This document shows, piece after piece, positions 3,434 to 59,300 of a stretch of 64,000 nucleotides of DNA; position 1 is the first letter of the stretch; each line of letters starts with the position of its first letter. Below the pieces are notes generated by a model, which did not search any database, was not told where the DNA came from, and was given only the letters and a program-made list of their open reading frames with translations. This DNA is from Stegostoma tigrinum (Eukaryota), in assembly GCF_030684315.1 (NCBI RefSeq), contig NC_081394.1, positions 13,312,658 to 13,376,657 of the forward strand. Reading direction: 5' to 3'. Both the position numbers and the translations under genes were made by a program.

Positions 3434-5169
3434 CTCTGATGTGATTATCTTTTCCTTTTCTGTTACAATTTCCAGCTCACTCACGTGTCTTGAGAACAGC
3501 ATTGCTCCTCACCATTATTCTTGTGCAATGTTATTTCTACGTTGATCTGACCAAGTGTTCTGCATATTTCATATTTGTACGCTTTGTACAAATGTGTTTC
3601 GAGAGAGAAGAAATGAAATCGACCATGTGTGGTCTAATATTTCTGAATCCCTGAATAAATGCAACTTAATGAACATTATCCTATTTCTTTTTATTTATTG
3701 TCATGAAGTTGCAGTACTAATGCTGAACTGATTTTCTTTTTTTTGAATGTTTCATTCATTAAATCATGAACTGTGGGTCATGCAAGTGAGGTCAAAATGT
3801 TATCACCAATCTGTAAGTGCCCAGAAGGCAGACAAGGCTGAATCACAGTTCTTAGTTTCGAGGGTCGCTTTTTGTTCCTGTAAAGGCATTAAGAAACAAA
3901 GTGACTTCTGTTCTTTACTTTCAACATTGGCTTAACGGCCATCATTCAACTCTATTTCCAGACTTTCATTTAACACAATAAAGTCATGATTGTATTTGTG
4001 CCCAGGTAACGATTAATTTGATCTGTGGATTAATACTCTGGATAACAATGCAACAATCTGTTACCTCATCCAAAGATGAATGAAACTTGGTCAGATAAGA
4101 AGTTTTCACTTTCAATTAAATTGTCAATAATTTATCCAGATAATCATTATTCACCGTTCTCTTTTAAGCAAGTAATTCATTTGTCCCTTTTTGTTTACTA
4201 TGGTTGTAAAACTGGTAGGTATTTAAATCTCCAGAAATGGAACCAAGATTCTTACACATATGAAATGCACTGCATATCAAGCCTGTCCCCTACTTTGGTA
4301 CATATTATGGCTTTTTTTAATTTTAAGATTATGAATGGATTTGCAATGGTTTTCCCCAAGTTATTTGGCAAACTTAAACGAAATCATACTGTCAAATTCC
4401 TATCATATGAGCATGCTCACTTTTAACAATTTGATCATGTTTTAAAGCTCATTTACCCCTATTTGCCTGGCAACCAAGGAGAATATCTAATAATTCTTAC
4501 TCACTTGCACGTTCTGCGACTTCAAACAATTTCAACAATTCCTTAATCACTGCTGTTTAACACGTAAAATGTTTATGACTACCGAATTATTTTAGTTAAG
4601 ACATGTCAACAGTGTATTTTTCATTTATTTTCTGCATGTTTTTTCTTCATTTGTCTTTGCCTTCTGATGCTTCATATTATCTCTAATGCTCATCTCTAGC
4701 CGAACTTGTTCCTCGTTTGGAACAAACAAACAGTGTAAGATTGTACTTTTAATTCATTTTGGGCGTGCAGTCTGTAGATTGTCAAGATACAAATATAATT
4801 GTTACATTTAAATTACCACTGATTCCATTTCACCTTACCAGCTGTTTCCTGGAGTTGAATCAGCTGCTTGATCACTGTCAAGAAAGGAAAGCACCATATT
4901 AGCTTGCAATGGAGGCAAATCAAAGTCTGAGAAGAATGTTGAGCAAAGCTATTCGTGAGATATTTCAATTGATAGTGAACTGAAAGAAAAAATATTAGTA
5001 GAAATGCAAACTCGTTACATCAGCACACATCAATGGTGACAGAAACAAAATTGACAATATGTGATTATAAGCTTTTGTTTTGAGTTGGCAAAAAAAGTTG
5101 TGACTCAAGGCTTTACTGAATTTCAATGTTTTACCACACATATAACATTTATTCATATCTGATATAAGT

Positions 5170-6522
5170 TGCAAGCCTACCAACTCCCAGACCTACCTAG
5201 AATATATATCCTCTTACCCATCCTCCTGCAAGATTGACATCCGCTCATCACAATTCTTTCGCCTCCACCACAGTTGCTCCCAGCATGTCCCTTTCCACTC
5301 CCAGACATTCCAGATGCCCTCGTTTTTAAAAGAGCACAATTTTCCTTCCAATGTGATCATAAACACCCTCAAACGCATCTGTCGCGTTTACCACTCCACA
5401 AACCTCACAACCCTCCCCCGCAATGACAACAAATACAGAATTCTTCTTGCCCTCACATGTCACCCAATCAACCTTTGGATCTAACGTATCATTCACCATC
5501 ACTTCGGCCACTTGCAATCTGACCCCACTATCAAGGAGATATAAATTTAATCAAGGAGATATTTTCCTCCCTACCCTAATCTGCCTTCCGGAGGTATCGT
5601 TTTCTCCATGAGTCCCTCGTACACTCCAGACACTCCACTAACCTCAACACCCCGGTACTTTTCCCTGCAACCACAGGAAGTGCTACATATGCCCCTTCAC
5701 CTCCTTCCGCTCCCCCATCCCAGGCCCCAGAAAAACCTTCCACATTAATCAAATGTTCATGTGCATATCTGCTAATGTGGTTTATTGTATCCAGGCTTCC
5801 AGGTATGGCCTTCTCAACATCGGGGAAACCAAGCAGACGCTTGAAGACTGCTTTGTTAAGCATCTGTGCTTGTTTCATCACAAATACCAACACCTCCCAG
5901 TAGCAAACCACTTCAACCCACCACCCCGTCAATCCCTGGACGACATGTCCATTCTGAGCCTCCCCCAGTGCCAAAATAATGCCACCTGAAGGCTGGAGGA
6001 ACAGCACCTCATATTCCACTTGGGGACCCTACAGCCCAAAGGTTACAATGGTCGCTTCATAAACTTCAAAGCCTCCTCACCCCCGACTTCATCTGAAGAC
6101 CCGCCAATCTCGCCTCCGCTTCCTTGACCTGTTCATTTTTACACCCAGAGATCTGTTGCTCCCACCTCACTGACCAACACCCACACCAACTTGCTGCCTA
6201 CTCACCTCTCCTGCCTCTTTGACCTGTCAGTCTTCCCTCCCCCTACCCACTCCTTCCTCTTCAATGACCAATCCCTATCCCAACTCCAAACCTACACTTA
6301 CCTTTACTGGCTCCATGCCCGCCTCCTTGACCCGTGCACCTTCTCCCCACCTATTTGCTCTTCTATCCATTTTCTATCACTTCTTCCCCCGTCTCTGTTT
6401 ATTTCAGAGCAAACTTCCCCTCCTCCATTTCTGAAGAAGGGTCCAGACTCGAAACATCAGCTTTCCTTCTCCTCTAATGCTGCCTGGCCTGCTCTGTTCA
6501 TACAGCTCTACACCTGTTATCT
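5170..6522 (+). mobile_element. Penelope-like element (RT thumb + GIY-YIG endonuclease, decayed) ending in a hammerhead-like terminus
   Basis: KPT..YL..SSHP motif near 5175-5225; ORF 5753..5989 SANVVYCIQASRYGLLNIGETKQTL is GIY-YIG; terminus CTGAAGAAGGGTCCAGACTCGAAACATC at 6431-6458. Confidence 0.9.
6431..6458 (+). ncRNA. Minimal hammerhead-ribozyme-like motif (Penelope-associated)
   Basis: CUGAAGA core, extra A, stem II GGGUC/GACUC, GAAAC, then AUC triplet. Confidence 0.6.
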
Positions 6523-7964
6523 AACTACATTTATTCATGATCACATGAAATCGAGAAAACTGCAGTTTTTGACTTATGATTACATCTCGTGGCTGCAGGA
6601 TAACTGCAAATAAACATCAAAATAAGGCGTAATGTTCACTTTAGCACATTTAAGATAGCGTTCAACAAATATCAAGATTCTCTTCGCATGCTTAAATGCT
6701 TTCGCTGGCAATTAATTGTCACCTTTATCTTTCTTCTCTTGTTGTGCATCTGAAATTCAAATGCAGTGAAGTCCGTCATTCTTTATCTTAAATGTTTTGC
6801 ACACTGAGGGAAATTTTTCCATTAGCATAGAGCTAAATATTTATCATGTAGAGGGTTGCAACACTGACAAATAATAGATTCAATTTTACTCAAAAACAGA
6901 AATTGTCTTACGCTCATACGTTTGCTTAACACTAGCAAGTGGAAACAAAAAAAGCAGGTTACAACAAACACTACCTCTTACACCAATATTAAAGTTGATG
7001 TGTGGAGTGCTTCTCTTGGTACAATCAACTTACTCTAAATAAGGAGAACTATTGTGGTTTTTTAAACCTGTTCACTTAGTGCAATGATAAAATAACCAGA
7101 ATGTCCTTTCTTTCCTAATAAGACACATAGTAGAATGAACTAATTCGATGTATAAGAAAATAAAAAGCATGATTAGAAAAGATTATTCTCGTGCAAAGCA
7201 TACTGAATTTTTATTAACTTATTTTTAACAGTAAAGGATTATAATCTTCATCACCCTGTCTATAGCAGCCAGCTGGATGATGGATACCAGCTTTTGCTTC
7301 TAACTCAGTTATATTGAATAAATAGTTTGAGGAGCAGGAATGTATGCCCAAGCATGGAAATGTTTTTAATTTGGGCAAGACTGAGCACAAGCACATAATT
7401 TAAGCTAATACAGTACCAGTGCTTTTTGATAGGTCAAATGACAATGATATCATCAGTTGAAGAAACAATCAATAAGAACGAGTTAAAAAAAAACATTAAT
7501 TTTGAGGAAATTACAATATTTCCTTCAAAACAAGTATCTACAGAAAGCATAATCACACTTGATTCCAGTGGATTTGAACGGATTCAAACGAATTTGTGTG
7601 GTATCAATCTAGCAGTCAGCCGTGCCAGCCAGCCTACAAACCAATACTCACAAAATTCCTTACGGCATCGATTTTCAAGTAGGAATTTTTTTTCTTAATT
7701 ATTTACTAATAAGTTGCAGGTAATTAAATAAATAGTCTCATTAATTATTCATCAGCAGGTCTTGTGAGGTGCTACAGTTCATTTGCCTAACAGTTGAAAC
7801 CAGTGCGTTTTTTTTTGTTTGGGCACTGCGAGCCATGACAACAGTTTCCTCTGAAGTAATGTGTTGGACTCTTCTTAATATCAAAAAAATCAACTAGTTT
7901 TCTCTCAGTATGCCACTGTTTGAGAACAAGAGAATCTGAAATCGATAAAGAAGCAATTAAACTT

Positions 7965-17766: not shown

Positions 17767-17820
17767 CAGAGGTAGTAAGAACTGCCGATGGTGGAGTCAG
17801 AGTTAACACAGTGTGGGGTT
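17767..17820 (-). mobile_element. Penelope-terminus tail fragment
   Basis: AGAGGTAGTAAGAACTGCCGATGGTGGAG...ACACAGTGTGG matches the reverse complement of the family tail (compare 61418-61470). Confidence 0.55.
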
Positions 17821-18779
17821 GATTCACCATAAACCCTGAAGACAGGTAAATAGAGTTCAGAGTAGAAGACCCCCTGGCATCAGGAGATAAAGAATTGTTG
17901 TACGCACTCCAAAACCTCAACAGAAATGAAGCCAGTTAAGAATTCTGAGAGAAAAAAAAAACAGCTCACCGAAAAGTATAGATTGAACCTTGACTAAAGT
18001 CAAAGCATCAGAAAAGACAAATTCCGCACAGCAGTGTGGGGAATTGTAACAAAAGCCTTCAATGCCTTCTTGGATTACTGGCCTGCTCAGACAAAAAACA
18101 ACCCAGAATGGGAATGGTTCAAGAAAGCCTGCATTGGAGGCCTGGGCAAATCCCTTCCTAATTAGACAAAGGTGACCTTGTTCATCCAGAAAAAAAAGGG
18201 AACCTTTAGAATGTTATGCCGATGCCACGTTTGCAGTATACAAAGAATGTTGGGGGTGGTCCAGAATCCCATTCGAGAAGTGAGATATATCGATGAAAAT
18301 TTAAGTTGGATTGGGTGCACATTTTAAAACAGTGATTGACCTGTGGTTGCTGGTTGGGAATGATTTAAAGAAAATACCTAGTCGGGGTCTAGAAGCAGAA
18401 AATAACGAAGGGAATGTTAGGAAGCTAGTGGCAGTTATTCATGGGATCCCAAATTAACAGGATGCTGGCTAGTCGCAAAGCAAGGAGAAATGGGCTTTGC
18501 TTGCCAGTAGGGAGGAAATTTCGCCAAAATTGATCCAAAAACAAATCATTAAATATGGGAATTGTGGGAAGCTGGGAAAGTGAGAAAAGAAGACTGTTGG
18601 TCTCCTGGTGGAGGCAAGCATGGACATGGATGAAAGCAGAATCAGGGAAATCCCCAGCCAGTTGCCAGCATAGTAAGCAAACTAACACAAACTTGCCGCA
18701 GGCAAGCAGAAAAACTAATCACGGACACGTAGTAGGTCGTAGACCATTGACAAATGGTAGGAGTTACCCAGACGTACAT

Positions 18780-23750: not shown

Positions 23751-24102
23751 AATACGGCTAAACAGAATAAAACAACCTGCTCCAGCAATAAGAAACAAAG
23801 TGGCCGGCAAGGGATAAGTAGAATTAAACTGCCTGTTTCAGCATTTAATTGAACCATAATGATACGTTTGAACAGGGCTACTCCAACATGAATGAGACAC
23901 CCTGCAAACATCCATCCAAGGCAGTTCAATACAGAGATTCCTAGGGATAGACAAGTGATTATTTTCAAACTTATTAATGAACGGATGTTGTCCCATTGAA
24001 TGAATAGCACCATTTACAACAAGGGATGCAAAACAACAGCTCATAAACCAACCAGCCTAACTCATTAAGTGGCTCTCAAATAATAGTATGATGAAGTCAA
24101 TT

Positions 24103-24233
24103 CTGAAGAAGGGTCCAAAACAGAAACGTCAGCTTTCCTGCTCCTCTGATGTTACTTGGCCTGCTGTGATCATCCAGCTGTACACCTTGCTTTCTCAGAG
24201 TCTCCAGAATCAGCAGTTCCCACTATGTCTGAT
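24103..24233 (+). mobile_element. Penelope-terminus short element with hammerhead-like head and tail
   Basis: CTGAAGAAGGGTCC..GAAACGTCAGCTTTCCTGCTCCTCTGATG...CAGTTCCCACTATGTCTGAT. Confidence 0.85.
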
Positions 24234-24440
24234 TAAGCAATTAGTTGTTTCTTTGAAGCCATTCACGATATTAAGGGATAGGTACCCGTCAAAGATTCCT
24301 CAGAAAATCAGAGATATATTTCAACAAAAGTGCAGATATACCTATAAACAACTTTTAATAAATGGATACGGTTAAAGAAAAACCTTTAAACTTCGATGTG
24401 AAGTTAATTAGTTTCAGAAAATGCTTATCTTATCTTTAAA

Positions 24441-24605
24441 ACGGTAGTAGATTCGCCAACTTTAAGTACATTTAAGTCGTCATTGGACAAGCATATGTAC
24501 GTACATGGAATAGTATATGTTAGATGGGCTTGAGAGCGTTATGACAGGTCAGCACAACATCGAGGGCCGAAGGGCCTGTACTGAGCTGTAATGTTCTATG
24601 TTCTA
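24441..24605 (+). mobile_element. CR1 3' UTR fragment
   Basis: Near-identical to 35260-35420 (GTAGATTCGCCAAC...GAAGGGCCTGTACTG..GTAATGTTCTATGTTCT). Confidence 0.92.
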
Positions 24606-28122: not shown

Positions 28123-28650
28123 TGGTGGTGCCGTGGCACAGTGGTTCACACCGCTGCCTCACAGCACCAGAGGCCCAGGTTCGCTTCCACCCCCAAGAGA
28201 CTGTCTGTCTTCCTCCAGGTGCTCCAGTTTCCTCCCACAGTTCAAAGATGTGCAGATTAGGTGAATTGGCCATGCTAAATTACCCATAGTGTTCAGGGAT
28301 GTTTAGTTGATAATAAAATGTGAGGCTGGATTAACACAACAGGCCCAGCAGCATCTCAGGAGCACAAAGGCTGACGTTTCGGGCCTAGGCGCATCATCAG
28401 AGAGGACTGAAACCTCTCTGATGAAGGGTCTAGGCCTGAAACGTCAGCTTTTGTGCTCCTGAGATGCTGCTGGGCCTGCTGTGTTCATCCAGCCTCACAT
28501 TTTATTATCTTGGATTCTCCAGCATCTGTAGTTCCCATTATCACTGATGTTTAGTTGATTTGGGTTATAAGGGATGGTTCTGCGTGGGATGTTGTGAGGG
28601 CCAGTGTGCACTTGCTGGGCCAAAGGACTTGTTGCCACACTGCCAGGATA
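28123..28650 (+). mobile_element. tRNA-derived V-SINE (HE1-like), interrupted by a palindromic element
   Basis: A-box TGGCACAGTGG (28134), B-box GGTTCGCTTCC (28178), V-domain GTGCTCCAGTTTCCTCCCACAG..AAAGATGTGCAG..ATTGGCCATGCTAAATT, CR1-like tail GGGCCAAAGG. Confidence 0.9.
28312..28545. mobile_element. Palindromic Penelope-derived element with hammerhead-like cores on both strands; 14-bp TSD
   Basis: Arms 28311-28405 and 28413-28507 are inverted repeats around a 7-nt loop; TSD GATGTTTAGTTGAT at 28298-28311 and 28546-28559. Confidence 0.92.
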
Positions 28651-32969: not shown

Positions 32970-35420
32970 AGTGAGAGAGACAGGGTAGTTGTCATGGGGG
33001 ACTTCAACTTTCCAAATATTGACTGGGAACACTATAGTTCAAGTACTATAGATGGGTCATTTTTTGTCCAGTGCGTGCAGGAGGGCTTCCTGACACAGTG
33101 TGTAGATAGGCCAACAAGGGGTGAAGCCACATTAGATTTGGTACTGAGTAATGAGCCCGGCCAGTGTTAGATTTGGAAGTAGGTGAGCACTTTGGTGACA
33201 GCGAACACAATTCTGTTATGTTTACTTTAGTGACGGAAAGGGATAGGTGCATACCACTGGGCAAGAGTTATAACTGGGCGAAAGGCAATTACGATGAGAC
33301 TAGGCAAGATTTAGGGAGCATAGGATGGGGAAGGAAACTGTAGGGCATAGGCATATTAGAAATGTGGAGCTTATTGTGTGTCCTACATAAGTATGTACCC
33401 GCCAGGCAGGGAGGAATCTGTATAGCGTGGGAGCCATGGTTTACAAAGGGGGTGGAATCTCTGGTCAAGACGAAGAAGAAGGCTTATGTTAGGATGAGAT
33501 GTGATGGCTCAGTTGGGGTGCTTGAGGGGTATGAGGTAGCCAGGAAAGACCTAAAGAGGGAGTTCAAAAGAGCCAGGAGGAGACATGAGAAGTTGTTGGT
33601 GTACAGGACCAGGGTTAAACCTAAGGCTTTCTATAGGTATATAAGGAATAAAACAATGACGAAAGTAAGATTAGGGCCAATCAAGGATAGTTTTAGTAAC
33701 TTGTGTGTGGAGTCAGAGGAGATGGGGAAGCACTAAATGAATATTTTTCAACAGTATTCACTCCAGAAAATGACAATGTTGTCGAGAAGAATACTGAGAT
33801 ACAGGGTATTAGACTACGTGGGATTGAGGTTCACCAGGAAGAGGTATTAGAAATCATACAGAGGGTGAACTAGATAAGTCCCCTTGGCCGGATGGGATTT
33901 ATCCTTGGATCCTCTGGGTAGCCATGGAGGAGATTGCTGAGCCTTTGGCATTGATCTTTAACTCGACATTGTCTACAGGAAGAGGGCCAGATGACTGGAG
34001 GATAGCAACTGTGGTTCCCCTGCTCAAGAAGGAGACTAGAGACAACCCTTGTAATTATAGACCAGTGAGCCTTACCTCACTTGTTGGTAATGTGTTGGAA
34101 AAGGTTATAAGGGATAGTATTTATAATCATCTAGAAAAGAATAAATTGATTAGGGATAGTCAGCACAGTTTTGTTAAGGGTAGGTCATACCTCACAAAAC
34201 TTATTGAGTTCTTTGAGAAGGTGACCATATAGGTAGATGAGAGTAAGTCGGTTGATGTGGTGTATATGGATTTCAGCAAGGCATTCTATAAAGTTCCCCA
34301 CAGTAGGCTATTTTACAAAATGCGGAGGAATGGGATTGTGGGAGATATAGCAATTTGGATCGGAAATTGGCGTGCTGAGAGAAGACAGAGGTTGGTAGTT
34401 GATGGGAAATGTTCATCCTGGAGACCAGTTACTAGTGGTGTACCGCAAGGGTCGGTGTTGGGTCCACTGCTGTTTGTCATTTTTATAAATAACCTGGATG
34501 AGGGCGTAGAAGGATGGCTTAGTAAATTTGCAAATGACACTAAGGTCGGTGGAGTTGTGGATAGTGATGAGGGATGCTCTGGTTTGCAGAGTGACACAGG
34601 TAAGCTGCAGAGCTGGGCTGAGAGGTGGCAAATGGAGTTTAATGCAGACAAGTGTGAGGTGATTCACTTTGGTAGGAGTAACCAGAAGGCAAAGTACTGG
34701 GCTAATGTTAAGATCCTTGGTAGTGTAGATGAGCAGAGAGGTCTCGGTGTCCATGTACACAGATCCTTCAAAGTTGGCACCCAGGTTGACAGGGCGGTTA
34801 AGAAGGCATGCAGTGTTTTAGCTTTTATTAATAGAGGGATCGAGTTCCGGAACTAAGAGCTTATGGTGAAGCTGTACAAAACTCTGTTGCAGCCACACTT
34901 GGAGTATTGCGTACAGTTCTGGTCACTGCATTATAAGAAGGATGTGGAAGTTTTGGAAAGGGTGCAGAGGAGATTTACTAGGATGTTGCCTGGTATGGAG
35001 GGAAGGTGTTATGAAGAAAGGCTGAGGGGCTTGAGGCTGTTTTCGTTAGAAAGAAGAAGGTTGAGAGGTGACTTAATTGAAACATATAAAATAATTAGAG
35101 GGTTGGATAGGGTGGATAGGGAGAGCCTTTTTACTAGGATGGTGACGGCGAGCACGAGGGGGCAATAGCTTTAAACTGAGGGGTGAACGATATAGGCAGA
35201 TGTCAGAGGCAGTTTCTTTACTCAGAGAGTAGTAACGGAATGGAACGCTTTGCCTGCAATGGCAGTAGATTCGCCAACCTTAGTTACATTTACGTCGTCA
35301 TTGGATAAGCATATGGACGTACATGGAATAGTGTACGTTAGATGGGCCTCAGATCGGTATGACAGGTCAGCACAACATCGATGGCTGAAGGGCCTGTACT
35401 GTGCTGTAATGTTCTATGTT
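32970..35420 (+). mobile_element. CR1 LINE, relatively young, most of ORF2 plus 3' UTR
   Basis: Endonuclease RVVVMGDFNFPNIDW; [50 protein letters not shown]; few stops or frameshifts; tail GTAATGTTCTATGT. Confidence 0.97.
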
Positions 35421-40989: not shown

Positions 40990-43080
40990 GTTGCATAGAC
41001 CCAGATACAATTCCTGACAGCCTTTCGTAAACACTGGTACCACATTAGCCAAGCTCCAATCTCCTGACACCTCTGCTATCGCGGCTGATTAAACAAATAT
41101 CTCAGCAAGGCGCCCAGAAGTCTCTCCCCTCGTTTCCACAATGTTTCGGTAAACATCTGATAAAGTCCCAAAGATTTATCGACTCTTCTGAATTTTAAGG
41201 CTTCTGGCAGGCATTTTTCTGCAATCTGAATGTTTCCCGAGACATATTATTTACTTTCCCAAGTTCCCTCGCTGTAATTTCTACTGTCCAGTGAATATTG
41301 ACACAAAATTTTCATTTAGTGCCTCACTCCTGTTGTTCCACACATTGACGGCTGTGTTTATCTTTATGGAGCCATGTTTTCTCCCAAGTTACTCGTTTAA
41401 ACTTAATGTTCTGACAGAATTACTTTAGGCCTTACTCAACTCTATTATTCAAAGCAATTTCATGTTCCCTTTGCGTTTCTTATTACCATCTTATGTATAC
41501 TGCCCTTTTACACATGTCAGGATTTGCCCGATTCTAGCTGGCTATATGTGATATCTGACTTTTTTTTTTCTGAAGAAGGGTCTAGGCCTGATACCCCAGC
41601 CTTCCTACTCCTCTGATGCTGCTTGGCCTGCTGTGGTCATTCAGCTCTACACTTTGCTATCTCAGATTGTACAGCATCAGCAGTTCCTATCAGTTCTGAT
41701 ATATGCTTCCTGTTTTTACTTGATCTGAGCCTCAATGTCATTAGGCATTCAGCATTCCCGAAACATACCAGTCTTGTTTTTCATACTAACAAAAAAAGGT
41801 TTGTCTCTTTGCACTCTTTACTTCATTTTAAAGGCATCACTCTTTCCAACTGTCACTTTCCTGCGAGTAGCCTCCCCCAATCAAATTTCAAGCTGTCAAA
41901 GTTGACCTTACTCAACTTCAGAACCTTAAACTTTTCATCAGTTATATCATTTTCAACAACTATGGTAAAAATACTAGGAATATAATTGCGTTTCCCAAAG
42001 TGTTACACCACTGACATGTCAGTCACTCACCCTGCGCTGTTTTATACAAAAAGGTCGAGAATTGCTAATTCTAGAGTAGATGTATTCATTTGTAGAATAA
42101 GAAAGTTTTATTTTGTACACTTTTAATAAATTCCTGCCCACCCCAGTCCTTAACACAATGACAGTTCCAGGTTTCTTGGGTGGGAAATTTATTATCCCCT
42201 ATTATTAAAAGCCTATTATTCTTACTGTTATCTGAATTCCACTTATATGTTTGCTTTTCAGTTACCACTGTCTATTGGATGCCTAAAATAAAATCTCAAC
42301 AAAGTCATCGTGTTATTCTTATTTCTCAATCCACCCAATAACTTCACTGGAAGTACTGTCAGGAAAATCCTCCTTCTGTTATGACTAGAAAAAAATGCCA
42401 CCAACTCTCCTCACGTTTGTCTCTTTCTACATCATTTACATATCTACATCATTGAACGCTAAGCTGCCAGAACAACCATCCCAAAGCCTAATTTCTGTAC
42501 TAACTATGATACCTAAGACCCATTTTCCCAACCATCCTCTAAGTTGATCTGTCTTGCCTGGGAGGCATCATGCATCAAAAAGGTGCAGTTTAAGTTATCA
42601 GTATTACATGTTCTTTGCCAGAATGCCTGCCTTGATTATTTCACATCTTATCCAAATTAACAGCATCAGTCCTTTCACTTTTTCAGCAACACTTTGGTAA
42701 TCACCAACCACCCAATCGAAAACCCGCTGCCGTGCCTTACCAGTTTACAGCCTTAACCTAGCACTAGCAAATCTCCCACTAAAGATAATTGTCCCGTTCC
42801 TGTTCATCTACAATGTAGGTACCACTTCTAGCGGTCAACCATCCAGTTGATTTTATGTGCCGTTTTTCTATCTTCCTGAAACTGCGGTCCATCATGCGCC
42901 ATTGCATTTGTAATCCCCTTATTGCCTCTCATTGCAACTCAACCTGATTTGTGTAGCCTGGTTGGATTTACCACAAAACACTGGCTACAGACATAGTCTT
43001 CTGAAACATTTAAATAATCTATCATCTCCCATATTTGATGCCAAAAACACATCACTCTATTAAGAGGCACATCGGCAACT
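40990..43080 (-). mobile_element. Old CR1 LINE 5' portion (endonuclease / ORF1 remnants)
   Basis: Minus ORF 42086..42268 LLIIGDNKFP ~ VVGDFNFP; remnants homologous to 33000-34000 in reverse. Confidence 0.7.
41570..41700 (+). mobile_element. Penelope-terminus short element inserted in the old CR1
   Basis: CTGAAGAAGGGTCTAGGCCTGA...TGATGCTGCTTGGCCTGCTGTG...CAGCAGTTCCTATCAGTTCTGAT. Confidence 0.85.
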
Positions 43081-47700: not shown

Positions 47701-48633
47701 TTATCAAACATTTCACCTCACTCAATTATCTTTCGATCTGTTAAGGCCAACTAAATCTCGACTTCAAGGACCCACCTGCTACTGGCTGTAAAACTAGCAC
47801 TTCATCTCCACAAGAAAAAAAAACATGATTTTTTTTAAAAATGTATTGCCTCCTTCCTGTTTTATCACAGGTTGTGCTACTTTGAAATGTTGTCTAACCA
47901 ATTCATGCACTCTATTTAATTACTTTATTTTTCCTAAAATGTGAAACTTAGAAAAGAAAAGATGTTATCTCTGAACTCTGACTCATAAATTCTTCCTTAA
48001 AAAAAATCAATGTCATTTCACCTCATGTCCACAATTTAATTCATATTTAGCCGATTCAGTTGATTCAATAGATACACTCTGAATTATAAAATGTACAAAG
48101 GGAGCTTGTTTATCATAATCATTTGAATCGTCAAAACTATCAGGCATCGTCATTGTCTTTAAAATTTGCCACCATCGTTCTAATGTTATTTATGATTTCA
48201 GAGTGTTAAGCAGTTAATGTAAATTGTTTAATTCCTAAACAATCCATAACTTCCTTGAAAATCTGATGTAAAATTTGAAAAAAAACAACATCCAAATGCA
48301 TTTCTGTGTGTAATATGTGTCTAGTTTTTTAAAAAAAGAGTAATGCTTTGGCAATCTTCATTCTTAGCCATGATACAGTGTACTGAGATGGCCTGCGGAA
48401 ATCTAGTAGGCACATGCATTATGATCAGCAAATACTGGTTCCCATGTTTTGTTTGAGGTACTGTTTTTTGCATGATCAGTTAAGACTGTTGGAAAAGATT
48501 CACTAAATGTGGGAATGTGTAATAGCTGTGCAGGGTTTATCATTGCCTGAGGTTCCTACATTTACTGACTTTTGTGGCGAGTCCAACAAAATTCAAATAC
48601 ATCTTGTTGCAGCCCTGGCAAAGCTAAAATCTG

Positions 48634-48844
48634 AGATAACAAAGTGTGGAGCTGGATGAACACAGCAGGCCATGCAGCATCTCAGGAGCACAAAAGCTGA
48701 CTTTTCGGTCCTACACCCTCTCTGATGAAGGGCTAAGGCCCGAAACGACAGCTTTGTGCTCCTGAGATGCTGCTTGGCCTGCTGTGTTCATCCAGCTCCA
48801 CACTTTGCTCTCTTGGATTCTCCAGCATCTGCAGTTCCCATTAT
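48634..48844. mobile_element. Palindromic Penelope-derived hammerhead-like element; 15-bp TSD
   Basis: Inverted arms centred at ~48720; CTGATGAAGGGCTAAGGCCCGAAACGAC at 48722; TSD CAAAGCTAAAATCTG at 48619-48633 and 48845-48859. Confidence 0.92.
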
Positions 48845-49039
48845 CAAAGCTAAAATCTGTTTTTTTTTTTCTTTCTTTCTTTTTTCACCCCTTTTGCCTT
48901 GAGTATTCCTTTATCGAACTAGTGCCAAATGTGCTATCTGGAACATTTCCCTTCTATGAGCCATTGGTAACACAACTTGAAGAAATTCTGATTATTCCTC
49001 ATCCAGCTCAAAGTGTGCTGGCTACCACGTCGTCATTGT

Positions 49040-50978: not shown

Positions 50979-52589
50979 AAGTGAGGGGGCTGGATTGAGA
51001 GAGACGTTTTAATTTTCACACCTTGTTTCCAAAAGCTACCCAGCAACTACAGAAGGCTAAACTAAAGACATGGCTCTGTGAAAGATCAACACCACCCCTT
51101 CATACTTGCATGCTGATGTATTGTTCTGACATTTAAAAGAAGGCTTCACAAGCAGTTCAGTTTTTAAATCTTGGGAAAGACTTCTAAATCATTCTGTGTC
51201 AGTATCTGTTCATTAAAAGCGAAACAGTATTCCCAATTTCCAAAAAAAAACTTTTGTCACAAATGTATGCGTTGTGTGCCACCAGCCAGGGTATGGTTGG
51301 GAGTCAGCTAGGTTTGTGGGACTGGAAGAAGGTCCATGGCACCGCAGTTTCCGTTAAACATCCTGTCAAGAGCAGTTAAAGTTGATCACTTCTGGGTTCT
51401 CACCATAACAGTGGGAAAGACACAAGAGATGGAAGACTCACAAGAGATGGATGCAACAGTATCTCTGATTCTGACATAACACAAAGGATAAAGTTAAAGG
51501 TACTGCAAAGAAGCCTGCTGAAAACATATCATGGACATAAATAGAAAAAGTGGCGCCAACGAAGGTCCAATGTACTGGAAAAAAATTACAGCTAATGGCT
51601 CACAGTGCCAAATTACTTTTGTGTGGTGAAAAGGTGATGAACATGCATTATTCTAATGCTCCTGATTACAGAAAATGAAGTTAAATTAGAGCGAGTTCAG
51701 TAACTGGTGAGCTCAAAGCAAGTTTTTCAGGCAGGTTGGGACACATGAAAAGAAAAAAAAGAGTCTTCGCGGAAATCTGGGACGAAGTGAAAGGAATTGA
51801 ATTAAAACTTAAGTTGAAGTGGGTGTCGCAGCTAAGATATCTGAAATCGTCTGTACCCCATCCTGCTAAAAGTGGAGGCGCACGTGGACGGCCGGTGAAA
51901 TGTAAAGCCTTGTAATCAGTACGCACTAGTAAATATGCAACTCTAACCATTCCAGACTTAAAACCATTAATGTCGAGGGATTTGCAGTGACTTAAAGATC
52001 GTAATCGATTTTGCTGTGTTCAGATAAACAACTATTCAAATCATTGATTACCCGCTCAGGGTATTGGCTGGGGAAAGGTAATGCTCAAAATGTATGTGTC
52101 ATGTAGGGATGCTACAGGTGACTTTATTTTTACACCAAACGGAACTTGGTCTGTCGTAGAGGACAAGGGATCAAATTTTAAGTAGATTGTGATGTGCCCA
52201 GAGTTGTGTGGACGCTTGTAAGGTTATTCTTCAAGGTAGAGCATTTGTAATATTTTGCAGAAGCCCTGAAAATGTTGCAGTAGATTTTTTTAAAAATGTT
52301 AAAAATGTGAGTATTTTTAACTCTATAGGAGTTGGGCCATGTAACCGAGGTTGTAGGATTATACAAGGCGTGCATTAAAAATAAAGGCTTCCTAAAAGCC
52401 GTTACACTAAAGAATATATGTCAGGTTTGATTGTTCTTGGGACTGGTGAACTACTATTGGAAGTTTGTGTCTGATCTGGCGAAAGCAAAAACATTGGTTG
52501 CTGTCTAAAGGCCAACCGTAAAAATGAACCTAGGAAAATGACAAGGCTTACCAGCTAATATCGCAAACCTTAGAAATCCTCAGAAGTGT

Positions 52590-52762
52590 ATCAGAGATAA
52601 TGGGAACTGCAGATGCTGGAGAATCCGAGATAACAAAGTGTGAAGCTGGATGAACACAGCAGGAAAGCAGCATCTCAGGAGCACAAAAGCATCAGCTTTT
52701 GTTCTCCTGAGATGTTGCTTGGCCTGCTGTGTTCATCCAGCTTCACACTTTGTTACCTTAGG
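52590..52762. mobile_element. Palindromic Penelope-derived element (tail on left, hammerhead core deleted); 10-bp TSD
   Basis: ATCAGAGATAATGGGAACTGCAGATGCTGG tail, arms meeting at AAAAGCATCAGCTTTT; TSD TCAGAAGTGT at 52580-52589 and 52763-52772. Confidence 0.88.
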
Positions 52763-53040
52763 TCAGAAGTGTTGACAGTTTACAATGCAAATATGACACT
52801 GAAATTGGCATGCAAAGCCTACACTCACGGTGCCAGTGTTGTATTGCTACACATCTTGCCTGAAGAAGAGAATAGACCAATTCATTCTCACCACTGTTTC
52901 TAGTGATGACACAGAAGAAGTACGCTGAAACAGGGAAAGATGGGATTTGATATCGTTTCCGGCATTTGCAAAATCATGTTTTTATTATGGCAGGCACCTG
53001 GTGCTTCTGAAAGTTCACAAGCTGCTAATAACATTTTTAT

Positions 53041-53249
53041 AAAATGTGAGGCTGGATGAACACAGCAGGCCAAGCAGCATCTCAGGAGCACAAAAGCTGA
53101 CGTTTCGGGGCTAGACCCTTCATCAGATGAAGGGTCTAGGCCCGAAACGTCAGCTTTTGTGCTCCTGAGATGCTGCTTGGCCTGCTGTGTTCATCCAGCC
53201 TCACATTTTATTATCTTGGAATCTCCAGCATCTGCAGTTCCCATTATCT
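53041..53249. mobile_element. Near-perfect palindromic Penelope-derived hammerhead-like element; 16-bp TSD
   Basis: About 85-bp arms with one visible mismatch, centred on 53125; TSD CTAATAACATTTTTAT at 53025-53040 and 53250-53265. Confidence 0.95.
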
Positions 53250-53689
53250 CTAATAACATTTTTATGTTTTTTTTTGGCCAGAAGATGTTAATAGCATCAA
53301 GTAACTGTTATTGTATTCTAACTGTTTTCAATGGCATTTTCGAGTAGAAATTGCACCCTTCTGACCAAATATATTTTAAAATGGATTCCTTACGCATACA
53401 AAATAACTGAGCTGTAGCTGAGTAAAAAATTAGTCATCATAAAGTTATGTTTTCTTAAAAAAACAATTTTCACTAAGTAAAGCCACTTTTCTCAAATAAC
53501 TTTTATGACCACTTTGCATTGCTGACCTAATATTGGGAGAGATCAGTTGACAAAGTTACCAAAGTCGCTATAATTTTCTGTCCACCACAGCGTCCTCTTG
53601 TTTACCGTTATCCCTTGCCTTGATTGTCCAGCGCCAGGGTAGTATTTCACACAAATCAGCTTGAATTATGTACCCCAATTATTTGCCAA

Positions 53690-54660: not shown

Positions 54661-54944
54661 CTGAGAAACATAATTTCCCATAATCTGAACATTTGATTTG
54701 GATTGCAATTTTCAACCAGTAAACTTCAACATTGAGCCAAAAACAATATAAACCAGGATTCCACCACTTTGATTCAATTATAAATCACTGAATTGAAAAT
54801 TGTTGGCTGTTTGTTGATATAAACATTACAACCACAAAGAAAATGATGGCATGTCAGAGCTGTAACAATTTGTGGCTTGCTTGAGAGTTTGTTTTAGAAA
54901 GTGCTATCTTCAAAAAAAAGCTAAAGTTATTGGACAGTTAATTA

Positions 54945-56350
54945 GTCCACTACAACCTTGCATTCACTGGAACCATCTCCAATACTCCTCTCTCCTTCCA
55001 AGGCCTCTCTGTTTCCATCTCTGGCAATGACCTGGAAACCGGTATCTATTTCAATTTTACCGACTCGCACAGCTACCTTGAATACATCTCATCTCACCCA
55101 CCTTCCTGCAAGAATGCCATCACCTACTACCAATTCGTTCACTTACGCTACATCTGCTCCCAAGATGAGACATTCCAAACTCAAACATCCCAGATATCCT
55201 CGTTTTTCAAGGACAGCAAATTCCACTCCAGAAGTTTCGAAAATGCCTTCGACCACATCTCACTTGTTTCTCACAATGTATTTCTCACACTCCCTCCCCA
55301 AAAAAGAACACAACAAAAACAGAATCACCCTTTTCCTCACGTACCACCCCACCGACCTTCAGATTCAAGGCATTATTCTCCGCCACTTCTGCCATCTGCA
55401 ATCTGACCCCACTATCAAGGACAGGTTTCCCTCCCCACGCTTACCTGCCTTCCAGAGGAACCACTCTCTGTGGGGCTGTCTTGTCTTTTCCACACTCCCC
55501 ACTAGACCCACCACCCTGACACGTTTTCCTGGAACGGGAGGGAAGCGCTAAACCTGCCCCTACCCCTCCTCCCTCACAACCATATAAGGCCTCATGAAAA
55601 CCTTTCACATTCAACAGATGTTCACCTGCACATCTGCTAACATGGTGTATTGTATTTGCTGTTCTCAATGTGGCCTCCTCTACATCGGCAAAACCAAATG
55701 GAAGCTTGCAGACCACATTGTGGACCACCTACGCTGAGTTCACGACTTTCGACTGCACATCCCAATCATGAAATACTTCAACTCTCTCCCCGACTCCTTG
55801 GACGAGATGTCCATCCTGGGCCTCTTTTAGTGCCACAACGATGCCGCGCGATGGTTGCAGGAACTGCACCTCATATTTCACTTTCGAACCCTGCAGCCCT
55901 ACAGTCTCGAGGTGGACTGCATATGCTTCAAAATCTCCCTGCCCACGCCCCATCCAAAAACCGGCCCAGCTCATCCCCGACTCCTTGACCTGTTCGTTTT
56001 TCTCTCACATATCCGCTTCTCTCACATTACTAACCTACCCCACCCCCATACCATACCTACCAGCCTCATCCCTGCCTCTGTGACCTGTTTGGCTTCGCTA
56101 GACTGACCAAACTACATGTTAACTCTTCAACCACAGCCACATTTACTGGCTCCATTCCCACCTCCTCGACCTGTCCGTCTCCTCTCCACCTATCTGCTGC
56201 TTTATCCGGCTTCCACCTGCCCCCTCACTCTCTCTATTTATTTCAGAATCACCTTCCATTCCCAAATTTGAAGAAGGGTCCAGGTCTAAAACATCAGCTT
56301 TCCTGCTCCTCTGATGCTGTTTGGTCTGCTGTGTTCATCCAGATCTACTC
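54945..56350 (+). mobile_element. Penelope-like element (RT C-terminus + GIY-YIG), decayed
   Basis: FTGTIS...DSHSYLEY.SSHP.SCKNAI; SANMVYCICCSQCGLLYIGKTK (~55634-55698); terminus TGAAGAAGGGTCCAGG..AAACATCAGCTTTCC; homologous to 5170-6522. Confidence 0.92.
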
Positions 56351-59300
56351 TTAACAAACTTTGCAGGGCTGTTTGTTCACCTTCTTAAGAAGTCCCAAAA
56401 ATGTCAGGTCCATTGTAACGCAATTGTTTCCAATACAAATGCTCCCAGACATGAAATTATTCAAACCACATTCTCGAAGATACACGTCCATGTATGTTTT
56501 TGATTTTTCTTTTTGTCTCTGTTGTGACTCCAACGATTATAGAAATCGACTAATTCGCTCGGACTTGTACAGAATTACAGAATTAGCTAATCGTAATAAT
56601 TTGTTAGTGATAGCTTGCAACAGCTGGCCAACATTAAGTTTTTGTTTTATTCTATTTCGTGCGAACATTTCAAATGTATTGCAATACCTGCTTAAAACAA
56701 TATTTTCGGTCAAAACAACTTAGACATTATAAACAAGTAAATTGTTCATAACAAAAGTTTTTTTGTGCAATTCAATAACTCATTTTAAGTAAATCGGTGC
56801 CGATTGTTATTGAAGTTTGTGAAGAAATAATTTGGAATTAAAATGCATGCACAGAAGAGAGGTGTTGCATGATCCACAACACAGAATACTGCACGTTTTG
56901 GACAGTATGGTTATTTCTTGAAGTGTTCCAAATTTTCACAATATGTAACAACACTAGGGCTTGATGGGAAAAGAAGAATGTTTTCAAATTGTGGAATTAA
57001 AAAAATGCAAATACTTATATACTAAAGGTATCCTGTATATTAAACATTATTTTTGCTTCGGTATATAAAGCAACAGAAAACTTCCGTTTAATCATCTCTA
57101 CGTGCATCCAGCATCTACAATGGAAATGTTGTTGCAAAAGGCACCATCTGTATATTCATTTCGAAAAAAACATCGCAACACCAAACTCATAAGCACATTT
57201 CGGATGCTTGAATGCCATAAACGAGGGACAGTCATCAACTTCTTATGACACTTAGCTTCATTTCATTTTCTTTTTTGTTCATTTTTTAAATACATAAGTC
57301 CAAAAAGCAAATTTGAAAACCTGCTGCATGACGACAGAGACTTTCACAATGCAAACAAAGATTCATTTCTGTTCTCACGAGTTACAATACGTAGATTGTT
57401 AACTATTTCCAACTTACCTTCGAACTACTTATTTTGTAGATTCTTTTTGATCACGAGTTGACATGGGCCATTTACACATCTCAAATACAATAGTCAAGAT
57501 GCAATATTTTCTACTTTTGTGTGTTGCTCGATTGAGTAAGTTCACGCTTCTGAATGAGGATGATCACGAGTTCTCCACTGGTACAGGAAGAGGCAGCAGA
57601 TATCAGCAGGAACGACGGTGGGAGGAGATTAAATGACCCAATCTGATACCATATAATCTACCAGAAGTTTGTACATATGGGTTTTAATGACAGACATTTA
57701 AGGAAGTGAGATAGGAAAGAAACAGCTTTTAAAAAAAAACACTCATGTTCTGTGCATAGGCTTGTGGATGTATTTGCGAGTAAGTGCTGACAGTTCAGAA
57801 TTTACCATGCAAATTTATTTCCAAAAGTTACAGGCTTTTAAAAAAAATGTCCTAATACTCTTTGTGGAGAACAATTTGCATTGCATGAGTACAGAAAAGT
57901 GTTTTTTTGGGGAAAATAAAAGAAGTAATTTGAGGAGGCAGTTTAAAATTTACTTAATACCAGATGATGTTGCATTTTGTTGCCAGACATTAAAACAATG
58001 AATAATATCATCCTGGTACGTAAAGTGCATGAATTTAAAATTGCAGGGGCATGTGATACCGAAGTTTCGACGACAGTTTCTTGTTAAATATGCGACTGGA
58101 AATTTAAAGCTCACGTTACTCTGGCAAAAGCAGCAACTTATGCTTATACTGCAAAAAAAGTAATATTATTTTAACAGGTAGGTTTGAGATCATAGCTTAG
58201 AAATAAAGGGTGTGATTTACCTTGTTGGTGATCCACCAACTGATGTTATTTAATTGGCACCAAAATTGCTCATACTCCCCTGAAAAAAGTTCATACTTTA
58301 ACTATTAATGCTCGAGGAAGAATGAAGCAAGTTATCAAACACGTCCCAAATATGTCAACTTTTCTTTCTTGTCATTCCATTTAGTAGAAAACTGAGTTTT
58401 CAAGCACATAGAACAAGACTGTAAACGCTTAAGCCCCTGTATCAAGAACAATAGCAACACAATGAAACAAATATATCAATCCTCCTGCAGTAACTAAAAA
58501 TACAAGCGTCAGAGACAGGCTTGAATTGTATTCTGGTATAATTCCAATGAGTCTGAACATGTTTTCGCATATCTTGAAATGGAATATCCGGACTAACAGC
58601 TACTTGTTTCATTTGGTTAAGCAGCTGAAACGCTCCAAAAGTAGAGAGGACAAGGTCATATCTCTTGGAATTCTTGATGAATCGATTTATATCTAATCTG
58701 GTATATTGAATTTGCTATGCACTACCTCATAATTATGTTGTTTTAGCATTAGAGTGGCAGGTATGTTAAAGGTATGATTTCATATGGAAGAGAACAGGAA
58801 GAATTTTAGCTCAATTTATTACTTGGCAGACAAGATAATTAACTGTCATAGCATATAATACAGTATTTGTTTAAAACAAAACAAAAAAAAAACGTCAGTT
58901 CCATGTTCAGCCATCAAGCTTTTCTTTAGTTTGTAGTGGGTGGAATTCGTTTCAAGTTATATTCCACTTGCCTTTGTTCTTTTCTCTCTCTCTCACTATA
59001 GAGAATGAAAATGAAGTTTACTGAGCTGGTTCAACTATTTCTCAACATCACCATGAAATGTGACCGTTCCTACAAACTAGCCATTGACGTTCAAAGTTTG
59101 AAAGCAAGGTCTCGATAATGCAATTATCCATTCACAATTAATTGAGATTTCCTTGTTTGTGACTTGTTATTTGATTCTAAAATGGCATTTCCGCCTGCAA
59201 AATGTTATTATAACCCTATTGTAATCATGACATCGTAGTATAATACCACTTTGATTGTCAGAATCTTCTTTTCCAGATACATAATTTCACAATTTGATTT

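Follow-up and report, generated by a model that had tools for sequence, protein, structure and literature searches.

The palindromic copy at 53025-53265 is almost certainly a dead insertion from an endonuclease-bearing Penelope-like element (EN+ PLE), namely a 5'-truncated copy of its terminal repeat (pLTR), and the reading that we favour for its inverted arms, with a probability of roughly 0.55, is that the two target strands primed cDNA at two start sites and that the truncated cDNAs were joined by microhomology. The copy displays the whole layout of EN+ PLE insertions, namely 5' truncation, an inverted upstream copy, a 40-nt tail at one end only and a 16-bp target-site duplication (TSD). 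Its features are listed below, numbered within the window, i.e. the whole 64-kb stretch of DNA that was analysed.

53025..53040, plus strand: left TSD, 16 bp, AT-rich, same letters as 53250-53265
53041..53124, minus strand: tail-less arm in inverted orientation, reaching outwards to the internal start site, where it has a 2-nt microhomology with the TSD end
53098..53126, minus strand: predicted minimal type I hammerhead motif, core complete, C3 at 53126 and C17 at 53099
53125, no strand: unpaired central A, the complement of hammerhead U4, which agrees with the tail-less arm
53126..53209, plus strand: forward arm, 5'-truncated at hammerhead G5
53126..53152, plus strand: clipped hammerhead motif without U4, predicted cleavage site 53151/53152
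53170..53250, plus strand: ATG-led frame of 27 codons, spanning the end of the forward arm and the tail
53210..53249, plus strand: 40-nt tail on the forward arm only, with no mirror partner
53250..53265, plus strand: right TSD, a copy of 53025-53040

The two TSD copies were identical at 16/16 positions and could not be extended further; the odds of such a match at random are ~2e-9 per offset, or 7e-7 across 400 offset pairs. The arms (53041-53124 and 53126-53209) were complementary at 83 of 84 positions, the sole mismatch being at 53110. The original prediction had described near-perfect arms differing at about one position, a 16-bp TSD and a centre reading CATC-A-GATG with a single A (53125) between the arms, and all of this was borne out, the TSD exactly; it overlooked the asymmetry of the copy, in which one arm carries the 40-nt tail that is the key to its classification. 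The same heptamer occurred at both ends of this tail (53210-53216 and 53243-53249, spaced 33 nt apart), and 2 nt were common to each TSD end and the element at the two heptamer sites. The region between the heptamers formed a weak hairpin (-5.5 kcal/mol, z -0.56), and a tail profile found 9 strong tails in the 64-kb window. The ATG-led frame is a candidate for the beginning of the element's ORF; it stayed open across the tail in 5 of 7 translated copies, there was no tandem copy in the window, and a protein search with the peptide of a sister copy returned 1 candidate and no match.

The ribozyme at this locus is a hammerhead predicted by motif match. The minus strand reads CTGATGA-A-stem II-GAAACGTC and the plus strand CAGATGA, and motif inspection upheld the earlier description of a core intact on the minus strand and clipped on the plus strand. 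C3 of the minus-strand motif (53098-53126) comes from the microhomology at the centre, and the 53110 mismatch sits in stem II. Minimal type I hammerheads of metazoan PLEs are defined in the accessible part of Cervera and de la Pena 2014 (PMC4209133), and their full core, extra base after A9, G10.1-C11.1 and palindromic tetramer in place of helix III were all present here. The putative helix I had 1 bp at 53025-53265 and 2 bp in one of the sister palindromes (the 28312 copy, see below). Rfam gave 0 matches at the gathering score in the whole 64-kb window, local sub-threshold searches gave 20 and 9 hairpin-type matches with no hammerhead among them, and minimum-energy folds of 7 segments contained no hammerhead fold and showed no gain over shuffles (z -0.77 to +0.85). 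At position 7, the older and younger subfamilies differed (A versus T; 6428-6487, 24100-24158, 41567-41625 and 56265-56323 compared with 28413-28470), and since this is the only free core position, the motif seems to have been under selection in the source elements. Both long copies of the family have, ~20 nt 5' of the hammerhead core (6400-6412 and 56235-56247), a pyrimidine tract with a splice-acceptor-like end that resembles the intron end beside the D. virilis Penelope hammerhead.

Family members in the 64-kb window were identified by blastn (17 arms) and by a profile search (18 arms), the latter alone detecting, at 17772-17829 on the minus strand, a short and old fragment that covers the final 60 nt of the terminus (E 1e-5). 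Together they represent 14 insertions: 4 palindromes, 8 short monomers and 2 long copies. The three sister palindromes and the long copies were as follows.

28298..28559, plus strand: sister palindrome (28312 copy), 14-bp TSD, one tail, both arms ending 5 nt upstream of C3 with a 7-nt filler between them
48619..48859, plus strand: sister palindrome (48634 copy), 14-15-bp TSD, 4-nt microhomology, 9-nt loop on the tail-bearing arm
52580..52772, minus strand: sister palindrome (52590 copy), centred on the cleavage site, with a 4-nt loop and a 10-bp TSD
5145..6538, plus strand: long tail-less PLE copy, older, 12-bp TSDs, with remnants of the reverse transcriptase (RT) thumb, Cys linker and GIY-YIG
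54948..56352, plus strand: second long tail-less PLE copy, decayed, with RT and GIY-YIG remnants

All four palindromic copies carried a one-sided tail, and all four centres differed, as had been claimed for this copy relative to those at 28312, 48634 and 52590. The filler at 28406-28412 lies between arms that end at the same base and, with its neighbours, resembled the stem II/GAAA part at 8 of 10 letters; it is possibly a templated insertion, or a product of chance. The two palindromes within 52580-53265 are independent copies from different subfamilies, in opposite polarity and 250 bp apart, and could cross-pair.

The short terminus was 81-84% identical to the 3' ends of the two long copies, which carry RT and GIY-YIG remnants, and the short unit is thus the terminal repeat of an EN+ PLE. 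The nearest proteins to the long copies came from whale shark, zebra shark, rays and other eukaryote models (19 matches among 174 candidates), and the best of them (P0001) contained RVT_1 (E 9e-5) and GIY-YIG (E 9e-5) and aligned with both long copies at 55-64% (tblastn). The window's own GIY-YIG piece scored E 0.017, under the cut-off, and Pfam found no match in either frame tried at 54942-55548. Only the C-terminal part of the RT survives; Neptune-like Cys pairs precede GIY-YIG in the 5145-6538 copy and have decayed in the second. From these remnants the family, which resides in an elasmobranch, probably belongs to the Neptune clade, of which a Zn-finger-like Cys linker between RT and endonuclease is a feature in the accessible part of Craig 2021 (PMC8557442). 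The 1.37-kb copy (5157-6526) ends at the internal start site, 4 nt from its 12-bp TSD and without an inverted arm. The RT frame of this copy begins directly after the TSD, and a candidate inverted tail stub at its 5' end (5157-5175) was rejected as RT coding sequence. An 11-bp repeat flanks the second long copy (54805 and 56367) and may be due to chance. Pieces of the family in contigs over a 501-nt stretch numbered 99,764 in sequencing run X3 and 130,280 in X4, figures that are not copy numbers, and further pieces occurred in contigs of runs X5 and X7 (the latter from a related species), none of which covered the flanks of 53025-53265. Contigs from metagenomes, viruses and prokaryote genomes gave 0 matches to a 25-nt family pattern, and a search with P0001 confirmed no relative among 74 candidate stretches of metagenome contigs. 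The window also contains decayed LINE-type RT copies at 33344-35418 and 1561-2550, which lie on opposite strands and are 86% alike, with a Pfam RVT_1 match at 34233-34853 (E 9e-18) and related pieces at 24440-24605.

Arm identity at 53025-53265 was the highest of the four palindromes (83/84, cf. 86/93, 72/79 and 59/64; Fisher p = 0.03 pooled). The copy had been proposed to be the youngest and a recent insertion: it is indeed the least diverged of the four, and it is recent only relative to its three sisters. Its 4 hammerhead CpGs were intact, which is weak evidence of age. One mismatch corresponds to ~8.5 million generations (95% 0.2-47 million) at the rate of the epaulette shark, possibly not the source species, for which the accessible part of PMC10587355 gives 7e-10 per site per generation; were the mismatch an RT error, the insertion would be younger. 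Contigs of X3 and X4, two samples from one study of which one is possibly the source of the window, crossed both TSD junctions unbroken with 0 differences. An empty site did not occur among the best 15 of 798 joints in these two samples, where contigs show presence rather than absence.

The 5' ends of family members, assigned manually from the alignment, piled up upstream of the hammerhead core. Eleven of the 16 short arm ends fell at -34 to -17 of the predicted cut, i.e. at the 5' edge of the core, and among the 15 arms that pass the cut, 13 stopped within 34 nt and 2 extended for more than 1.2 kb, with none in between. This clustering had a p of ~3e-9 by arm and 8e-8 by insertion under a crude null of a constant stopping rate that ignores shared ancestry. 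Contig evidence, drawn from 4 of 12 listed sequencing runs, placed the biggest pile of loose ends in both X3 and X4 at 53127 (920 and 1,077 contigs), where the consensus lost the family signal and became AT-rich after ~6 letters; these counts are biased to copies with short upstream parts, so that long copies are under-counted. We infer that the ends most likely collect here through a template RNA that starts at this point or through stalling of RT on the pyrimidine-rich tract, rather than through cutting by the ribozyme. The 5' end positions may already be visible in a published map of genomic copy ends (Supplementary Fig. 2 of Frangieh 2024, PMC11167929).

In the formation route that we propose, the GIY-YIG endonuclease would make two cuts in AT-rich DNA, one per strand and 16 nt apart, and each free 3' end would pair over 2 nt with uncleaved element RNA and prime reverse transcription, one at the tail end (~53249-53251) and the other at an internal site ~40 nt upstream (53209-53211). 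Synthesis of both cDNAs would halt on reaching the 5' edge of the core, their 3' ends would anneal over 2 nt, and fill-in would then yield, in order, the TSD, the inverted tail-less arm, the forward arm with its tail and the second TSD. The centre would be the meeting point of the two truncated cDNAs. The two-strand cutting and the two start sites are taken from in vitro work on a different PLE clade, in which the anole PLE protein, a predicted dimer, cut and extended both strands from two RT starts one tail apart (Frangieh 2024, PMC11167929). That Poseidon element showed no strand difference in start site, and joining was not shown. For the present copy, the joining of two cDNAs is what we infer, whereas the anatomy, family identity, end positions and microhomologies were observed.

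Priming from both target ends was supported by inverted arms that begin within ~8 nt of the internal heptamer in 4/4 palindromes, and by the use of the internal start site alone in the 1.37-kb tail-less copy with its 12-bp TSD. The central A was read against the upstream family sequence of the 28312 and 48634 copies together with the letters of contig joints; the two letters after 53125 are compatible with either arm and make up the 2-nt microhomology. This 1-nt loop and the loop of the 52590 copy both match the tail-less arm, and such letters would be out of reach of a tail-bearing cDNA that folds back. Microhomology of 1-4 nt was present in all 11 centre joints among the best 15 of 798, and one joint in that set was a loop-less perfect palindrome on a self-complementary tetramer. 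A few contigs (X3, X4 and X5) contained joints from 53127 to 53207, 53216, 53218 or 53222, which combine a long tail-less arm with the tail only. Against this reading, the case of 53025-53265 consists of one nucleotide, perhaps untemplated or changed later (T at 53125 makes up ~35-40% of summed contig depth, from other copies), and the 4-nt loop of the 52590 copy matches the tail-less arm only if one CpG has decayed. Moreover, the tail-only joints could alternatively be nested insertions, and contigs across the junctions do not reveal the tail-bearing arm. The arms share subfamily-diagnostic letters in 4/4 copies and thus have a common source. Fold-back predicts this; priming from both ends would require one RNA used twice or two RNAs from the same source.

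Fold-back itself, in which a tail-primed cDNA truncates, folds over 1-4 bp, copies back to the tail boundary and joins the other target end, is the main rival, possible though less likely on present evidence. Besides the shared diagnostic letters, it would readily accommodate the 48634 copy, with its clean geometry of a 4-bp stem and a 9-nt loop on the tail-bearing arm, and 10 of the 11 centre joints (best 15 of 798), which allow loops of 4-29 nt, the deepest being a 4-nt T loop. It is also close to Arkhipova 2013 (PMC3846280), in which palindromes at junctions are explained by self-priming on an antisense template. At 53025-53265, for which fold-back had originally been suggested, the fit was poor, as the loop is 1 nt long and its letter matches the wrong (tail-less) arm, as it does in the 52590 copy; the 7-nt filler of the 28312 copy does not discriminate between fold-back and priming from two ends. 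Nor does fold-back give a reason for copying back to stop at a site that acts as an independent target-primed start in the long copy, or account for the joints of a long tail-less arm with the tail only and the zero-loop joint (among the best 15 of 798). Both routes may occur. The original prediction further held that the centre varies within or next to the hammerhead, which was true of all four centres in the window, and that the RNA end defined by the ribozyme dictates the centre, RT running off the cleaved end and then folding back or switching template. The latter is very unlikely: sequence 5' of the predicted cut is present in 7 of 8 palindrome arms and in 15 of 18 arm ends, no arm ends exactly at +1, and both arms of 53025-53265 reach 25-28 nt upstream of it (53151/53152), so the template RNA was uncut or religated. 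Four of the 16 short arm ends did lie within 7 nt of the cut, the 52590 centre straddles the cleavage site and 4 of 11 centre joints had their midpoint within 6 nt of it; the midpoints as a whole ranged from -4 to +22, with 6/11 more than 10 nt downstream (11 centre-spanning joints among the best-supported 15 of 798, in which centres upstream of 53126 cannot appear as skips). The 2-bp helix I of the copy with the longest upstream part also speaks against this explanation, as does the anole element, in which hammerhead catalytic mutants left insertion unchanged in vitro, making cleavage dispensable, and no reads ended at the site (Frangieh 2024, PMC11167929). The ribozyme cut may explain a minority of centres.

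We give little credence to two further explanations. The palindrome might be a MITE- or SINE-like non-autonomous element of small size, copied whole from a master hairpin, in agreement with the similar size and TSD of the four copies and the great abundance of the family (99,764 and 130,280 contig pieces); against this, all four centres differ, with at least 11 further centres in contigs, the ends are asymmetric, TSDs vary from 10 to 16 bp, and the 8 short monomers and 2 long copies have identical ends. A MITE or foldback DNA transposon as such was excluded by the one-sided tail, the 10-16-bp TSDs and the 4/4 differing centres. Template switching during replication, or repair, can produce short inverted duplications, and the inverted arm could on that basis have arisen after insertion, or through an assembly artefact, given that none of the listed contigs spans the whole hairpin. 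Such an origin is scarcely compatible with the enclosure of both arms by the TSD, with an arm that begins at the family's internal start site in 4/4 copies, or with the presence of both outer junctions, without differences, in the contigs of two samples.

Among the 15 listed joints of 798, those supported by the most contigs were tail-to-tail (11 + 37 in X3, 23 + 49 in X4), linking 53214-53215 to 53248-53251, so that an end at the internal start site is joined directly to the tail end of an inverted copy; a possible origin is insertion of the element into its own start-site heptamer. A more speculative extension of priming from both strands, which we put forward tentatively, is that most short copies are strong-stop products: both strands would prime at the heptamer sites and RT would run off the RNA 5' end, which would lie just upstream of the core, and the cDNAs would anneal, sometimes via the ribozyme's tetramer. 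If so, the many junctions of the genome would settle the choice between two-end priming and self-priming and would locate the RNA 5' end, from sequence.

Twin priming of L1, in which the second target strand primes internally and yields an inversion inside the TSD with microhomology at the junction, offers a parallel; its two parts do not overlap, whereas here the same 84 nt are present in both arms and the second start has a fixed position. Taken singly, the locus is minor, as the 64-kb window alone contains 14 copies of the family; its value lies in the centre as a type of data. The arm to which an unpaired centre belongs discriminates between self-priming and two-strand priming, and can be read in young, short palindromes. 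Such hairpins interrupt short-read contigs and resemble miRNA precursors (cf. the sub-threshold Rfam matches), which is relevant to annotation, and if transcribed would yield double-stranded RNA. Titles and abstract openings, a search that covered subscription papers and Repbase poorly, contained no report of inverted-junction centres mapped against the hammerhead. The origin of tandem and inverted PLE structures is described as still undefined in the accessible part of Craig 2021 (PMC8557442), and the competing published ideas are self-priming (Arkhipova 2013, PMC3846280, in the portion available) and two-strand priming, as suggested by Frangieh 2024 (PMC11167929).

The layout of 53025-53265, an inverted PLE copy plus a tail, is already published, and in this respect the locus is mostly ordinary. 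Arkhipova 2013 (PMC3846280) describes an inverted pLTR within a TSD that encloses the whole, one end bearing a 31-bp tail, and Craig 2021 (PMC8557442) gives an inverted 5'-truncated copy with a 30-40 bp tail as typical. The present copy shares with these EN+ PLE insertions the head-to-head truncated copy, the single tail, the outer TSD, a palindrome or short overlap at the junction and an AT-rich target. It differs in that the copies are cut to 84-124 nt with no ORF between them, and in its TSD of 16 bp, cf. 8-10 bp in the rotifer examples (PMC3846280); in the accessible parts of both papers, junctions are not mapped against the hammerhead. Non-LTR retrozymes, as outlined in the available part of Li 2026 (bioRxiv 10.64898/2026.07.22.740005), are likewise short, non-coding, hammerhead-bearing, PLE-derived and found in cartilaginous fish, but form head-to-tail tandems with a complete hammerhead per unit, whereas here the units are head-to-head and cut at the hammerhead. 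A retrozyme was therefore rejected, on the basis of the head-to-head arms, the clipped plus-strand core and the lack of tandem units among 18 profile matches. Opposite-strand hammerhead pairs resembling 53025-53265 occur in Schistosoma, according to the accessible part of Cervera 2014 (PMC4209133), where helix I is mostly 4-5 bp and 2 bp in D. virilis, cf. 2 bp in this family and 1 bp at this locus; the helix II of 4-5 bp in the putative ribozyme also counts among the differences from those minimal hammerheads. Lastly, PAc, the Poseidon PLE of Anolis carolinensis (PMC11167929), resembles the present family in its two starts a tail apart, its AT-rich cut, a hammerhead ~100 nt upstream of the start sites and an uncleaved RNA template. 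The main text of that paper does not account for the joining of an inverted arm, and the present family is set apart from PAc by its Neptune-like Cys linker and by two start sites that share one heptamer.
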